Positions 20,692 to 40,878 of a stretch of 64,000 nt of DNA are shown here, piece after piece. Every line of letters starts with the position of its first letter. The stretch's first letter is position 1. The position numbers and the translations under genes were made by a program. Where the stretch lies: the NCBI RefSeq assembly GCF_057098645.1, contig NZ_CM169472.1; one strand, written 5' to 3'. The notes below the pieces were generated by a model that did not search any database, was not told the DNA's origin, and saw only the letters and a program-made list of their open reading frames with translations.

Positions 20692-22971
20692 ATGAATAGA
20701 ATTAATATATTGGTCATCTGTATGGTCGTATTTTTTATGACTGGCAATGCATGTGCCACAGAGTGGATCAGTAGCGAGGACCTTATCACCTCTGACTTTC
20801 ATCTTATGACGGCAGATGAGCGCAACGTGGTTAAAGCGGCAACCGACGATAGTATGGAAGCTGCTTATATGCTAAAAGATAATATCCGCTGGTATTATCA
20901 TAATGGTGACCTATCATTACCCGCTAACTTCAGCAATCAAAATAAACTGGTGGTGAACGGTAATTTAACGATTTCCGGCGATTATGATGATTATCTGTCA
21001 GGTAATGGTCATCTGATTGTATTAGGTAATGTTATTGTCGATAACTTTATTAATCATGATTTCGCGTATGTCAAAGGACAGATGACAGCGAAAGGTTTAG
21101 TTTATGCTGATTACAATGATCATAACTTTGAAGTGATGAAGGGAATTAGTGCGCGAGGCATTATTGTTTCCGATAAAGCAACGCAATTTGAAGTCATTAA
21201 AGCTGAATTTTATATCAATGAAGATGGAAGTGGTGAAGGATATAACTGGGATGAGAATATTCAAAAAGCCTATTCACTGGTGACTGCCGATCTTTATGAT
21301 CACACTGAAATCGAAACCGATAACATTTCCAATGCGTATCCTGACTATGATAGCGTCGCAGACAACATCGTTCAGGGTTTACCGCTTTTTCGAGATAAAG
21401 CCGCTCCTGAAATTAATGAGAAATTAAAATGGATTGAAACGGGGAAACTCGATAATTTCCCAGCGAATAAAATAAAGCATCAAGATCCACTGGTGGTACG
21501 TTTTTTGACTCATACAGAGAGTTTATCACCCGCCGTTATGCTGCAACTGTTACAGCACCCCGATGACCAGACGCGTGAATCGATGGCGCAGTCCTGGCCC
21601 GCTCAACAGATGCATTTGCTTACCGATGAATTAATTAAAGATGAGGCTGTTGCCAGAGGGCTGGTTAAAAACAGTAATATTTCCGCCGATGTGAATAAAA
21701 AATTAATGTCTGTACCCGTCGAGAGCGTACAGCTGGAGCAGGCCAGACAGGATAATCTTTCTCCAGATATTGTTGCGTCGTTAAGTCATAGCCCCTTTCT
21801 CAGTGTACGCAAGACATTACTCAGCCATTACGATTACGCCTGGCTGGTTCCGACTGCAGTGGCCGATGAGTTGATAAATAACGAAGACCCGGAGTTACGT
21901 GAAAGAATTACCGGAGCAGATTTAACCGCACAACAAGCAGTGATGTTGAGTAAAGATAAATCACTGAAAGTTCGTGAAGCATTAGCCCGGACGCTTACTG
22001 AATTAAAAATTACCCAACTGTCAGCAACCCTGCGTACAGAGGATATTGAACGTATCGCAGAACAAATGTATCTGGATAATAAAGAAAATAAAAATATCGT
22101 AAAAGCGTTATTGATAGCGTTGCCGGAGATGCGTCAACTGTCTCTGGCAAAAGAAGATGTGCACAATTTGCGCGAAGGTGCGCGTTATCTGACATCGAAG
22201 GACGTGATTAGTTATCTATTGACTCAGCATGATGTTCCCACCGTCTGGGATGAGCTGGCACGCGATAAATTATTGCCGCTGGAATATAAGAAACAGTTAT
22301 GGCAACGCACATTAAATTTAATGATGAGCAAACGGCAAGAAGATCAAGAGCAAGCCTACGAAGTACAGCTGGCGCTGATTGATAATGGTGTTGTTGACGA
22401 AGAGATGTTAAATAATGCCATTGATTTACTGGTTGATTTACCCGCTGAATACCGCTATCGAATGCGTAACCAATTATTTGATAATAAAGATTTACCTTCC
22501 GGAATTATCAACAAACTCGATCAACAGTATCGCTTCAACTCTGACTGGGCGCTGGCTGTTGTCAGTATGAAAAATAGCACCCGTAGGCAAAGTGAAAGAG
22601 GATTACACCGCTGGAACCATGAGGATAGCGATATTTTTGCGGAACTGGCGACGATAAAAGATAAATCAGATGATGAATGGTGGCGTGCATTGCTGCAAAG
22701 TCGCAATGATCATTTGCGCCAAACGGCATTACGCAACGCACATACCCCGGCGTCGTTGTTAACGACATTGACTGAGTCTCAGGATCGGTCGCTGGCTATT
22801 AATAATCCACAGCTGGCTGCCGATGTGAAAACGGTGTGGCTAAAAGAGGATCCATCATTGCTTTTATTTGTCGATCAACCCGATCTTTCGCAGTTACGGG
22901 ATTTAGTGAAAACCGGGGCAACGCGGAAAATTCGCAGTGAAGCGCGTCACCGGCTTGAGGAAAAACAATGA
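20692..22971 (+). CDS. Accessory secreted repeat protein (759 aa): Sec signal peptide, beta-rich N-domain, HEAT/LRV-like helical repeats
   Basis: ATG at 20692 gives MNRINILVICMVVFFMTGNACA|TEW (AxA cleavage site). N-terminal third has glycine-punctuated beta-strand-like repeats (LVVNGNLTISGDY, HLIVLGNVIVDNF, GLVYADY, GIIVSDK). C-terminal two-thirds has helical repeats (SPDIVASLSHSPFLSVRKTLL, EDPELRERITGADLTAQQAV). AT-rich codon usage by eye. Confidence 0.7.
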   Translation: MNRINILVICMVVFFMTGNACATEWISSEDLITSDFHLMTADERNVVKAATDDSMEAAYMLKDNIRWYYHNGDLSLPANFSNQNKLVVNGNLTISGDYDDYLSGNGHLIVLGNVIVDNFINHDFAYVKGQMTAKGLVYADYNDHNFEVMKGISARGIIVSDKATQFEVIKAEFYINEDGSGEGYNWDENIQKAYSLVTADLYDHTEIETDNISNAYPDYDSVADNIVQGLPLFRDKAAPEINEKLKWIETGKLDNFPANKIKHQDPLVVRFLTHTESLSPAVMLQLLQHPDDQTRESMAQSWPAQQMHLLTDELIKDEAVARGLVKNSNISADVNKKLMSVPVESVQLEQARQDNLSPDIVASLSHSPFLSVRKTLLSHYDYAWLVPTAVADELINNEDPELRERITGADLTAQQAVMLSKDKSLKVREALARTLTELKITQLSATLRTEDIERIAEQMYLDNKENKNIVKALLIALPEMRQLSLAKEDVHNLREGARYLTSKDVISYLLTQHDVPTVWDELARDKLLPLEYKKQLWQRTLNLMMSKRQEDQEQAYEVQLALIDNGVVDEEMLNNAIDLLVDLPAEYRYRMRNQLFDNKDLPSGIINKLDQQYRFNSDWALAVVSMKNSTRRQSERGLHRWNHEDSDIFAELATIKDKSDDEWWRALLQSRNDHLRQTALRNAHTPASLLTTLTESQDRSLAINNPQLAADVKTVWLKEDPSLLLFVDQPDLSQLRDLVKTGATRKIRSEARHRLEEKQ

Positions 22972-23423
22972 CACAACGCCCCTGGAGCAAGTTACAGCGG
23001 GAGAACTATGACTTACTGACGCCAACGATCAACCTGCACATTCACTGTACCCGTTATCCCATGCGCAGCCAAAATGGTGGAAGCACCGATTTACCGCGTT
23101 ATTGGATCACGTTGGATAAAAACGTGATCTGGGATTACCCGAAAGACTTTATTGCAGGTAACGGTGGAGTGCGTAATTTTCACGGTGAAACTTGCTGGTA
23201 TCCTTACCTGACGGATATTTGTCCAATTTCTGATTTATTGCGTGAATATATTGACACCCCAAAAGCGGAGCTGTTAACAAAACAATTTACCAGCGATAAA
23301 TGGGGGTTAGTGAATATTCTGCGTGCTGCTGACAGGCGAATAGGGATGAGACGATTCGATCAGTTACGGCGTAAAACGCATAATATTGCTGCGCTAAAAA
23401 TTATTGCCCGCCGTAGCGAATAA
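22968..23423 (+). CDS. Hypothetical protein (151 aa) translationally coupled to the upstream gene; may correspond to the K-12 ykiA locus
   Basis: ATGA start/stop overlap with the upstream ORF; basic, Trp/Tyr-rich; no family recognised. Confidence 0.55.
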   Translation: MTQRPWSKLQRENYDLLTPTINLHIHCTRYPMRSQNGGSTDLPRYWITLDKNVIWDYPKDFIAGNGGVRNFHGETCWYPYLTDICPISDLLREYIDTPKAELLTKQFTSDKWGLVNILRAADRRIGMRRFDQLRRKTHNIAALKIIARRSE

Positions 23424-36647: not shown

Positions 36648-36805
36648 TCCTTGCGTTCTGTAAGCCGGTTCAGGAGGAAATCCTGATCCGGCTATTCCGA
36701 AAGTTATCCGCCCCCGTCCTCCTCCCCCAAATATCCTTCAGATGATGAGTGATCCTGCATTAGGCTATGGCAAGGTGATCAGATTTTCATCACAGGGGAA
36801 TTATG

Positions 36806-38620
36806 ATGTTAAATGCATGGCACCTGCCGGTGCCCCCATTTGTTAAACAAAGCAAAGATCAACTGCTCATTACACTGTGGCTGACGGGCGAAGACCCACC
36901 GCAGCGCATTATGCTGCGTACAGAACACGATAACGAAGAAATGTCAGTACCGATGCATAAGCAGCGCAGTCAGCCGCAGCCTGGTGTCACCGCATGGCGG
37001 GCGGCGATCGATCTCTCCAGCGGACAACCCCGGCGGCGTTATAGTTTCAAATTGCTTTGGCACGATCGCCAGCGTTGGTTTACACCGCAAGGCTTCAGCC
37101 GAATGCCGCCGGCACGACTGGAGCAGTTTGCCATCGATGTACCGGATATCGGTTCACAATGGGCTGCGGATCAGATTTTTTATCAGATCTTCCCTGATCG
37201 TTTCGCCCGTAGTCTTCCTCGTGAAGCTGAACAGGATCATGTCTATTACCATCACGCAGCCGGACAAGAGATCATATTGCGTGACTGGGATGAACCGGTC
37301 ACGGCGCAGGCGGGCGGATCAACGTTCTATGGCGGCGATCTGGACGGGATAAGCGAAAAACTGCCGTATCTGAAAAAACTTGGCGTGACGGCGTTGTATC
37401 TCAATCCGGTGTTTAAAGCTCCCAGCGTACATAAATACGATACCGAGGATTATCGCCATGTCGATCCGCAGTTTGGCGGTGATGGGGCGTTGCTGCGTTT
37501 GCGACACAATACGCAGCAGCTGGGAATGCGGCTGGTGCTGGACGGCGTGTTTAACCACAGTGGCGATTCCCATGCCTGGTTTGACAGGCACAATCGTGGC
37601 ACGGGGGGAGCTTGTCACAACCCCGAATCGCCCTGGCGCGACTGGTACTCGTTTAGTGATGATGGCACGGCGCTCGACTGGCTTGGCTATGCCAGCTTGC
37701 CGAAGCTGGATTATCAGTCGGAAAGTCTGGTGAATGAAATTTATCGCGGGGAAGACAGTATTGTCCGCCACTGGCTGAAAGCGCCGTGGAATATGGACGG
37801 CTGGCGGCTGGATGTGGTGCATATGCTGGGGGAAGCGGGTGGGGCGCGCAATAATTTGCAGCACGTAGCCGGGATCACCGAAGCGGCGAAAGAAACCCAG
37901 CCGGAAGCGTATATAGTTGGAGAGCATTTTGGCGATGCACGGCAATGGTTACAGGCCGATGTGGAAGATGCCGCCATGAACTATCGCGGCTTCACATTCC
38001 CGTTGTGGGGATTTCTTGCCAATACCGACATCTCTTACGATCCGCAGCAAATTGACGCCCAAACCTGTATGGCCTGGATGGATAATTACCGCGCAGGGCT
38101 TTCTCATCAACAGCAACTGCGTATGTTTAATCAGCTCGACAGCCACGATACTGCGCGATTTAAAACGCTACTCGGTCGGGAGGTTGCGCGCCTGCCCCTG
38201 GCAGTGGTCTGGCTGTTCACCTGGCCTGGTGTACCGTGCATTTATTACGGTGATGAAGTGGGACTGGATGGCAAAAATGATCCGTTTTGCCGTAAGCCGT
38301 TCCCCTGGCAGGTGGAAAAACAGGATATGGCGTTATTCGCGTTGTACCAGCGAATGATTGCGCTGCGTAAGAAAAGTCAGGCGCTGCGTCGTGGCGGCTG
38401 TCAGGTGCTGTATGCGGAAGATAACGTGGTGGTATTTGTCCGCGTGCTGAATCAGCAGCGTGTACTGGTGGCAATTAACCGTGGCGAAGCCTGTGAAGTG
38501 GTGCTACCCGCGTCACCGTTTCTTAATGTCGTGCAATGGCAACGCAAAGAAGGCCATGGGCAACTGACAGACGGGATTCTGGCTTTGCCTGCCATTTCGG
38601 CTACGGTGTGGATGAACTAA
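36806..38620 (+). CDS. malZ: Maltodextrin glucosidase
   Basis: 604 aa from [12 protein letters not shown]...; GH13 alpha-amylase family; ORF-track start at 36803 is an equally possible adjacent ATG. Confidence 0.92.
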
Positions 38621-38653
38621 AGCATCTGTTTTATTTGTTACGTCGTTAGTCAC

Positions 38654-38701
38654 CAGCCCTGACACTACGCAGCGCAAAAAAGCTGCTCAATGTCAGGGCT
38701 G
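38654..38701 (+). terminator. Long stem-loop downstream of malZ (putative terminator / islet boundary)
   Basis: cagccctgaca ... tgtcagggctg 11-bp perfect stem with a structured 26-nt loop, followed by AT-rich sequence. Confidence 0.45.
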
Positions 38702-38807
38702 AATTTGTTAAATATTTGTCCCGATCGATATGAGCGATTTTTGGTATTGTTTGCCCATGATGTTATGTACAACATGCTCCAGGATAACCCTGTAGTGGAG
38801 CAAAGAT

Positions 38808-39866
38808 ATGACAATTTCAAATTCGAATTTATTAAAACCGTTTATTACTGGTTCTAAGTTGCTACCTTTTAAGGATGATGTCTTTTCTAAAACAGAAGAA
38901 CAATTTAAAAAAGCCCCCATGGCAAATCGCTTTTCATTTCCGGAAATGAAAACTTAGTAAACATTTCAGCGGAAAAAATCGATGAAATAAAAAATAGCAA
39001 AAATTTCTTTTCAAACATTGTAAATATAATAATTTTACTCATTAAGCATCCTGATAAAATTCTGCCTATTCTTCATGGTTGTCCTGCAGAGCCCATCGAA
39101 TTCATTAAGAATGCGAAACGAACGGGGCAATGGTCATATGAGATGACTGATAAGTACGGGCAGAGTATTGAAGTGTCCTATATTTTCACTGATACCATAG
39201 ATAATAAATCTGATGGAAAATTATGCTTAAAAATCTGTAACTCCTGCAACCAAAATGATTCTAGTACACATGAATATAAAATAGATCATCAACAGTTGAA
39301 AAATCACATAAAGCAACTTGAGGAGTGGGCTCTTCTTGAAAAGTTTTATGATAACAACGCTTATTATTCTAAACGTACAAAACAATTAGAGAAGAAAATT
39401 ACCGATGCGGGGTTTATAACAGGGAAGGTTAATGCCGAGAAGTTTAATGTAAAAGAGTTTAAAGACGATATAACCTCGATGCTTTGTGAACAGCCGCCCC
39501 TGCGTACACACCAGATTTCTTCATCCGGATACGTATCTGCAGATAAACTGCCCAAACTCTATGAGTTAAATTTGAAAGACGCGCAGAGAGATCTTAAAAC
39601 AACACCGGTTGACATCGATGGTGTCAGTTTAAAATTTAAAACTCGGGAAAGAATTGCAGAAGAAATTGCGAAAAAAACTGCGGGAAAAACTGCGGAAAAA
39701 AATTCGGAAATAATTGCGAAACAAAATGCGAATAGCATTGAGGAGAAGAATATTGAAAAAAAACAAGAAAGAAACAAATCCTGAAGATAATTTTGTCTTA
39801 AAATTCTCACAGGAAGAAATCAATGAGATGCTCCTGGATTACAGCGACGAAGAACAAAAAAATTAA
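38808..39866 (+). pseudogene. Accessory gene interrupted by two frameshifts at homopolymer tracts (would encode about 350 aa)
   Basis: ATG at 38808 with GGAG SD starts MTISNSNLLKPFITGSKLLPF... (frame 0). Reading continues without stop in frame 2 after the A6-G-C5 tract at 38907-38918, through the ORF-track 213-aa segment (39143-39784). It returns to frame 0 after the A8 tract at 39754-39761 and ends at 39866 (...FSQEEINEMLLDYSDEEQKN). Confidence 0.6.
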
Positions 39867-39898
39867 GACCTTTTTTCACTAGTGATCACATCTATTGT

Positions 39899-40276
39899 TT
39901 GTTCGATGCTTTTAGTCAGTGTTTGCATAATGTTGCTCGTGATGGCAGTCCACGGTATGCAGGTTTACTACAACAAATAGCATCCAAGTGTGCGATATTA
40001 CAAGATTTTGATCAACAATTGTTCTGGCGCACGTTTACAGGAGGGGGCCTCCATCGACATATCTCTGTGAAGAGCGAGCCAGAAAAGACAGATGTATGGC
40101 GATTCAGTACACAATTTGATTTTCCACATATAAATGAAAACGGAGAGTTGTCCAGAACGGTACTCATGTTCGAGGGGGTTGCTGAAAGCAACTTTAAAGA
40201 TATCGCCAATCATTCCAGCGAATGTTTTTCTTACCGTTGTTATGCCGCCCCGCTGGATGCGAATGCTAAAAAGTAA
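39899..40276 (+). CDS. Hypothetical protein (about 125 aa), start uncertain (TTG in ORF track)
   Basis: ORF with no ATG near its 5' end; AT-rich; no family recognised; may be a gene remnant. Confidence 0.3.
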   Translation: MFDAFSQCLHNVARDGSPRYAGLLQQIASKCAILQDFDQQLFWRTFTGGGLHRHISVKSEPEKTDVWRFSTQFDFPHINENGELSRTVLMFEGVAESNFKDIANHSSECFSYRCYAAPLDANAKK

Positions 40277-40296
40277 TGACGCCGGAGTTTGAAGTT

Positions 40297-40878
40297 TCAG
40301 AGCGCCTTGCGTGACGCCTGCGCCATCATCCGCGGATAAAACTGCCAGAAGCGGGTTTCGAGGGCGGCATAATGTGCGTTTAAATCGTACCAGGAGTCAC
40401 GCAGGGCATCCAGACGTGGGCGACGGCTTGCCATGCCGTTTAACACGTTCTGGATGAAATCCATATCGCGATAGCGCACCAGCCACTGCTCTGACCACAA
40501 GTAATTGTTCAGATTGATAAAACGTGGCGGTGAGTCCGGCAAAATCGTCATCACTTGCTCGCGGGCATAACAGACAAATTCCTGTAGCGGAAAGTCCGGC
40601 GACAGCTGCGACCAGTGGCGGGAAAGAAAGTGATCCCACATGACATCCAGGGTAATAGGCGCAACGCGGCGCGTTTCACTACGAAACCATTCCCGTGCTT
40701 CGCGGACTTCCGGCAGATTGTCAGTCAATACGTCGATACGTCGATGCATATGAATGCCAGCCACGACGTCGGGCGGAAAACTTTCTTCAGGATTTCCGCG
40801 TACGAAATCAGCCAGCAAATTGCCGGAAAGCGAGCTTTCCGCGAGATGGGCTAAATGCAGGTGAGCTAAAAAATTCAT
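40297..40878 (-). CDS. acpH: Acyl carrier protein phosphodiesterase
   Basis: 193 aa, [25 protein letters not shown]... Confidence 0.92.

Follow-up and report, generated by a model that had tools for sequence, protein, structure and literature searches.

The tandem array at about 39636-39755 of the 64-kb window (that is, the whole stretch of DNA that was analyzed) is very probably an in-frame coding minisatellite, which would specify a charged, predicted-helical spacer in the middle of an Escherichia-restricted orphan protein, ECs0454, encoded in a small islet between malZ and acpH. The locus combines tandem repetition, a localized copy-number polymorphism and a unit length that is a multiple of three, and is in these respects a coding VNTR or minisatellite. 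The host gene is dead in the window, where it is a pseudogene, and its intact orthologs are found in other Escherichia coli genomes. The phenomenon as such is ordinary, coding minisatellites and homopolymer frameshifts being already well known; only the host gene is somewhat out of the ordinary, being a long and fairly widespread E. coli orphan that has no homolog.

Repeat array and its length variants

The array and its variable part are described by two features.

About 39636-39755, plus strand: tandem array of ~10 degenerate 12-bp units with the consensus RAARAAAHTGCG, supported by TRF, by lag-12 self-match with shuffles and by unit parsing.
39646-39726, plus strand: polymorphic core of the array, the site of every allelic copy-number difference.

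In-frame parsing of the array gives a 12-bp unit that encodes [E/K][E/K][I/T/N]A, and the successive units read ERIA EEIA KKTA GKTA EKNS EIIA KQNA NSIE EKNI EK... in the translation. The initial annotation had described successive near-copies between 39640 and 39784 as imperfect tandem repeats. These repeats are real: the tandem-repeat finder TRF returned overlapping arrays with periods of 12, 24, and 48 at 39638-39732 (scores 48-121), the units of which are 71-80% alike, and the self-match of the sequence is 0.72, 0.70, 0.71, and 0.74 at lags of 12, 24, 36, and 48, respectively, while values as low as 0.1-0.3 occur away from these peaks, at other than multiples of 12. As to the extent, the periodic part covers about 39636-39755, and the remainder of the annotated segment up to 39784 is not periodic. 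The 12-bp array is the sole sizeable tandem repeat of the window; the other repeat with a TRF score >50 is a 15-bp unit present in 1.9 copies at 54144-54172 (AATTCGCATTTGTAC).

Look-alike copies could in principle arise by chance from AT-rich Lys/Glu codon usage, in which case there would be no true repeat. The composition of the tract (22% Lys and 18% Glu, mostly AAA and GAA codons) and the limited similarity of the units (only 71-80%) agree with such an origin; however, in 20,000 shuffles of its codon order the observed self-match at lag 12, 24, or 48 was never attained, and the allelic indels come in exact 12-bp steps. Codon bias, which the initial annotation had itself named as the possible source of an artifact, does not account for the periodicity, so that a composition artifact as the source of the repeat is excluded and the probability of this explanation is negligible.

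The length of the tract was measured between the fixed anchors DIDGVSLK and NFVLKF in 118 distinct protein alleles. The observed lengths are 31, 35, 39, 43, 47, 51, 55, and 63 aa, i.e., they are always 3 modulo 4 and change in 4-aa steps. At the DNA level, 12 aligned alleles have length differences of -48, -24, -12, 0, and +24 bp, all of them inside 39646-39726, and all coding indels in this alignment are multiples of 12 bp, except for the three A-run frameshifts of the window that are described in the following section. Between intact alleles the difference is in every case a multiple of 12 bp, and the frame is kept. The comparison of copy number among strains thus bears out the variable-number locus proposed in the initial annotation, since the lengths differ between E. 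coli strains unit by unit. Certain allele pairs agree at every one of the other ~438 residues and yet are exactly one unit apart, for example, AKKTAEKTAKKN vs AKKTAEKTAEKTAKKN; because such otherwise identical alleles differ by one unit, the gain and loss of units is recent and recurrent within haplogroups. At the same time, the O157:H7 genomes that were sampled do not differ in length from one another, and the 25 O145 genomes have a single tract length. The tract is stable within clones and does not appear to be hypervariable on epidemiological time scales. No mention of the malZ-acpH repeat locus was found in the searchable MLVA literature.

Units are gained or lost singly or a few at a time, probably via slipped-strand mispairing or unequal recombination between units, and this yields protein alleles of 466-501 aa (the range among the matches listed in the protein database) that differ in the tract only by multiples of four residues. 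As the unit comprises 12 bp, the reading frame is kept automatically, and its preservation is therefore no evidence of protein-level selection. The array shares with bacterial in-frame coding VNTRs, such as those known from MLVA and from repeat surface proteins, the head-to-tail arrangement of units, a unit length that is a multiple of three, polymorphism among strains, single-unit steps, and the preserved reading frame. What sets it apart from these systems is that the units are both short and degenerate, matching at 71-80%, that the host protein lacks a signal peptide, an anchor, and any known family, and that the tract is stable within the clonal serotypes O157:H7 and O145.

Gene model and frameshifts in the window

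The pseudogene that contains the array, its translation start, and its lesions are located as follows.

38797-38800, plus strand: Shine-Dalgarno sequence GGAG, 7 nt 5' of the ATG at 38808.
38808-40276, plus strand: ECs0454-family orphan pseudogene, 489 aa with three frameshifts corrected; the orthologous CDS is intact elsewhere.
38907-38912, plus strand: A-run with a private 1-base deletion (A7→A6, at 38906), the first frameshift; the 11 other aligned alleles all have A7.
39756-39763, plus strand: A8 run, A7 in intact alleles, a +1 frameshift by allele alignment.
39782-39784, plus strand: premature TGA resulting from the frameshift at 39756, the end of ORF 39143-39784.
39856-39862, plus strand: A-run with a private 1-base deletion (A8→A7, at 39855), the third frameshift by allele alignment.

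Intact orthologs of this gene encode proteins of 481-497 aa that are annotated as 'hypothetical protein', including ECs_0454 in O157:H7 Sakai, and in O145 strain RM9872 the CDS is annotated as 'frameshifted'. Z0502 may be the tag of the same gene in EDL933. Based on the alignment of 12 alleles, all three frameshifts of the window are situated in poly-A runs, and the first of them already leads to a stop at 38955-38957 (ORF 38808-38957). In the 489-aa corrected protein, the repeat tract corresponds to about residues 277-320 and is internal, being preceded by an N-terminal region of ~276 aa and followed by a C-terminal domain of ~162 aa; after the tract the frame continues with EKNKKETNPEDNFVLKFS and extends by ~170 more residues to position 40276.

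The initial annotation had assigned the tract to the C-terminus of the protein. The translation that it quoted is the exact end of ORF 39143-39784; however, this C-terminus exists only in the pseudogene fragment, as the intact protein reaches beyond it to 40276. The tract looked C-terminal because the A7→A8 slip at 39756, which is near-fixed in the O145:H28 lineage, truncates the gene just past the repeat, and the final KQERNKS of the ORF is made of out-of-frame residues. With the gene model corrected, the apparent C-terminal tail is a frameshift artifact in a pseudogene.

The A8 run at 39756 is common to 24 complete O145:H28 genomes. O145 strain RM12275-C1 has A7 at this site and an intact 489-aa gene, and this is its sole difference from its siblings over 2.1 kb; the difference could reflect ON/OFF switching by slippage, retention of the ancestral state, or a homopolymer polishing error. 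The window is E. coli chromosome of an O145:H28-like strain: over 49.9 kb it shares 99.96% identity with strain RM9872 (O145:H28), from which it differs by 16 SNPs and 2 indels, the only two indels being the private deletions at 38906 and 39855. Four of these 18 differences (38906, 39092, 39855, and 40047) fall into the 1.47-kb gene, where its length alone would predict ~0.5. Errors of sequencing or assembly could account for the two private A-run deletions; the G at 40047 is not simply an error, since it matches the state of other lineages (GGGL). Two further lesions were observed outside of the O145 group, namely a deletion in O55:H7 strain USDA5905 that fuses the orphan gene's final third to the 3' portion of malZ, and an IS1 insertion within the orphan gene in strain GDSC2227PM. 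These are two independent inactivations of the gene in other lineages.

The malZ-acpH islet and its orphan protein

The genomic context of the orphan gene comprises the following features.

36803-38620, plus strand: malZ.
38621-40293, no strand assigned: AT-rich single-gene islet of 1.67 kb between the convergent malZ and acpH stops.
38654-38701, plus strand: hairpin with U-rich AAUUUGUU after it, a probable terminator directly 3' of the malZ stop, found by RNA folding.
40297-40878, minus strand: acpH, convergent to malZ.

The GC content of the islet is 29-44%, as compared with ~52-60% in the flanks. The K-12 genome has an empty site in which only 4 nt separate the malZ and acpH stops, a distance that leaves no space for an intergenic terminator. 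The islet is present in 1,127 of 5,426 complete E. coli genomes (~21%), in a single chromosomal copy in every carrier, and 4,295 of the 5,426 have the empty malZ-acpH junction; the site is essentially binary. Its site-specific presence or absence, together with the length polymorphism, could serve as an E. coli lineage marker. The hairpin at 38654-38701 has a predicted folding energy of -33.6 kcal/mol (z = -4.7), which was equaled by none of 200 shuffles; it is carried by the islet and does not occur at the K-12 junction, and is a probable islet-borne terminator. Searches of Rfam gave no credible match on the islet or on the whole 64-kb window, and a promoter scan detected no plus-strand sigma-70 consensus 5' of the orphan gene.

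The ECs0454 family is an Escherichia-restricted orphan with no relative outside Escherichia/Shigella among the databases searched. When 1.84 billion representative proteins were searched exhaustively with phmmer, 21 matches were obtained, full-length or fragments, all of them from Escherichia and at least 66% identical; in another protein search, the 120 matches listed were all at least 87% identical, and the named ones belong to E. coli, Shigella, or Escherichia sp. The full protein had only sub-threshold matches in Pfam, NCBIfam, PADLOC, and PHROGs, located on the low-complexity tract or on short stretches, and Pfam searches with each of the two flanking domains separately gave no match. Among models of defense proteins, the best PADLOC match (E = 0.097) is again on the low-complexity tract. 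No relative was found in the PDB by sequence or profile search. A relation to dynein roadblock proteins (E at least 0.03 in PDB single-sequence and profile searches) was rejected as a composition effect, as the match extends over the K/E tract. By tblastn, no copy of the orphan gene was found in 50,697 phage records, and two degenerate motifs, both validated by their match to the window, had no match in 100,044 species representative genomes or in IMG/VR contigs. Plasmid copies were likewise dismissed: the plasmid collection yielded only two matches, both to records of 4.9 Mb that are apparently mislabeled chromosomes.

Structure prediction did not yield a usable fold. The AlphaFold2 model of the full-length protein has a mean pLDDT of 35 (~50 in the tract), and that of the C-terminal domain alone has a pLDDT of 50 and a pTM of 0.35; neither is usable, and a Foldseek comparison of the C-terminal model with the PDB (best E 0.5, TM at most 0.24) gave noise. 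A literature search on ECs0454, including its RefSeq accessions, found nothing relevant. Two local features of the protein were noted. The N-terminal region contains an invariant CX3CX2C motif (KLCLKICNSCNQ, window 39224-39247, residues C140, C144, and C147), whose spacing is of the radical-SAM/Fe-S type; no such family matches, and the only match is a chance-level one to ArrB (E = 0.08). A mosaic hypervariable block at ~39956-40015 (residues ~384-403) reads YAGLLQQIASKCAILQDFDQ in most alleles and YIDLCSSTATKLQGLQDIEQ in alleles P0106 and P0115, and its near-invariant flanks point to local diversifying selection or to recombinational exchange between diverged alleles.

The ORFans of E. coli are AT-rich, have elevated nonsynonymous diversity, and average ~200 codons (Yu and Stoltzfus, 2012; PMC3514957). 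The ECs0454 gene resembles them in being AT-rich, in having no homolog beyond the species, and in its patchy distribution, as well as in its raised nonsynonymous diversity and apparently weak purifying selection. However, it has ~485 codons, which is over twice their average, it occurs in ~21% of genomes instead of one genome, and it is always found at one chromosomal site, without mobility genes. A ~485-aa orphan of this prevalence, without a homolog, predicted fold, or literature, is a candidate for the study of ORFan origin and function.

Spacer model and alternative explanations

We suggest that the tract serves as a charged α-helical spacer, which would join the ~276-aa N-terminal region to the ~162-aa C-terminal domain, and the length of which would be altered by roughly one helical turn with each unit. 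This putative role is drawn from the composition of the tract and from a very low-confidence AlphaFold2 model, in which residues 277-309 form a continuous helix, where the local pLDDT reaches its maximum (only ~50). The flexible charged linker envisaged in the initial annotation is plausible in this form, as a charged and predicted-helical linker, although it is internal and not terminal. The fraction of Glu, Lys, and Arg in the tract is 0.44-0.57, and opposite-charge pairs at i+3/i+4, which could form salt bridges, are not significantly enriched in comparison with shuffles (p 0.07-0.19). The hydrophobic moment is 0.24 at 100 degrees and 0.14 at 105 degrees, with a peak of 1.09 at 90 degrees; at 100 degrees per residue, a period of 4.0 residues does not keep the helix amphipathic along one face.

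Two known types of helix were considered and rejected for the tract. A canonical coiled coil does not agree with the period of 4.0 residues (heptads and hendecads have ~3.5-3.67) and the moment peak at 90 degrees. The tract has in common with the spacers of ER/K single α-helix domains that it is Glu/Lys-rich, predicted helical, and placed between two domains, so that its length would set their spacing; however, its content of Glu, Lys, and Arg is only 0.44-0.57, the charge pairs are not enriched (p = 0.07-0.19), and it has Ile, Thr, Asn, and Ala regularly every four residues.

Several other explanations concern the protein and its DNA more widely. A serious alternative to a functional gene is neutral decay, in which the ORF as a whole would be a remnant of horizontal acquisition that is functionless or in decay, with the repeat drifting neutrally; we regard this as unlikely, if by no means far-fetched. 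Pairwise dN/dS values are mostly 0.5-0.8 (range 0.47-1.7), which indicates apparently weak purifying selection, and values near 0.6 with some pairs >1 are compatible with weak constraint or with decay. The gene is absent in 79% of genomes, it has been knocked out independently through a frameshift in O145, a deletion in O55:H7, and an IS1 insertion, and it accumulates four of the 18 differences from RM9872 in 1.47 kb of the 49.9 kb compared, all of which would suit a remnant. On the other hand, in 28 of 30 genomes, taken at even intervals along the ranking, the ~485-codon ORF has stayed open, despite up to ~12% amino-acid divergence and a GC content of ~35%; at an estimated ~0.07 stops per codon, the likelihood of such an open frame by chance is vanishingly small, and most pairwise dN/dS values are <1. 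The GGAG Shine-Dalgarno sequence, the open ~485-codon frame, and the dN/dS values suggest that the ECs0454-family gene is probably real. A related question is whether the gene is a contingency locus, phase-variable by A7/A8 slippage, with the window representing its OFF state. Like the homopolymer contingency loci of Neisseria, Haemophilus, and Campylobacter, the gene has poly-A frameshifts in its ORF, which include all three frameshifts of the window, and a single-run difference within a clonal group, as one O145 genome is ON (RM12275-C1) vs 24 that are OFF, with A7 vs A8 as the only difference; of the 13 A/T runs of at least 7 in the window, 4 lie in this gene. However, the runs are short (7-8) for efficient switching, and their lengths of 7/7/8 are identical in 10 of 10 intact alleles from diverse lineages. 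Moreover, 28 of the 30 sampled genomes are ON, A8 is stable in 24 O145 genomes, where OFF is near-fixed, and the three non-compensating lesions of the window (net -1) resemble decay and not a switch; homopolymer polishing errors could also contribute. Phase variation is accordingly an improbable account of the locus.

Variable-number charged repeat linkers are common in surface proteins, and the initial annotation had placed the tract in a surface or secreted protein, as a charged flexible C-terminal tail or linker. The Ser/Thr/Asn-rich N-terminus (MTISNSNLLKPF...) would be compatible with type III secretion. In simple sequence tests, however, the N-terminus has no hydrophobic h-region and the protein has neither a Sec-type signal peptide nor a transmembrane segment (the maximum over 19-residue Kyte-Doolittle windows is 1.56, in a window with K, H, P, D, and K among its residues); there is no match to an autotransporter, adhesin, or effector family, the tract is internal, and the gene also occurs in human urine/UTI strains, so it is not restricted to Shiga-toxin-producing serotypes. 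The assignment to the cell surface is not borne out by these results, and a surface or secreted protein seems a rather remote prospect. Slightly less probable still is a DNA-level role, in which A-tracts spaced by 12 bp would curve the AT-rich DNA and nucleate silencing by H-NS, the peptide being incidental. The array does have A5-A7 tracts every 12 bp, the islet is AT-rich like H-NS targets, and the automatic frame preservation with a 12-bp unit makes no case for selection at the protein level. Against this role, a 12-bp spacing does not keep phase with the ~10.5-bp helical repeat that is needed for planar bending, the remaining islet is equally AT-rich without periodicity, and the copy number ranges five-fold with no apparent constraint. 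The internal charged spacer encoded by an in-frame minisatellite remains our preferred reading of the array.

A more far-reaching version of the spacer model would make ECs0454 an Escherichia-born two-domain protein with a spacer tuned by slippage, under diversifying selection in an arms race related to phage defense or host interaction. The helical spacer would then be adjusted by slippage of the 12-bp unit between 2 and 10 units, with a span of ~48 Å, and the repeat would be a length 'ruler' under diversifying selection instead of a product of neutral slippage. This version draws on the mosaic alleles, the raised dN/dS, and the possible ON/OFF switching at the A-runs, and we consider it speculative and of low probability.

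Elsewhere in the window, the collinear annotation of RM9872 places poorly characterized genes at 20692-23423, 3617-6505, and 13088-13291. The genes so annotated include a DUF2773 protein with an SF0329-family protein, an autotransporter, and a 67-aa hypothetical protein that adjoins ddlA/iraP.
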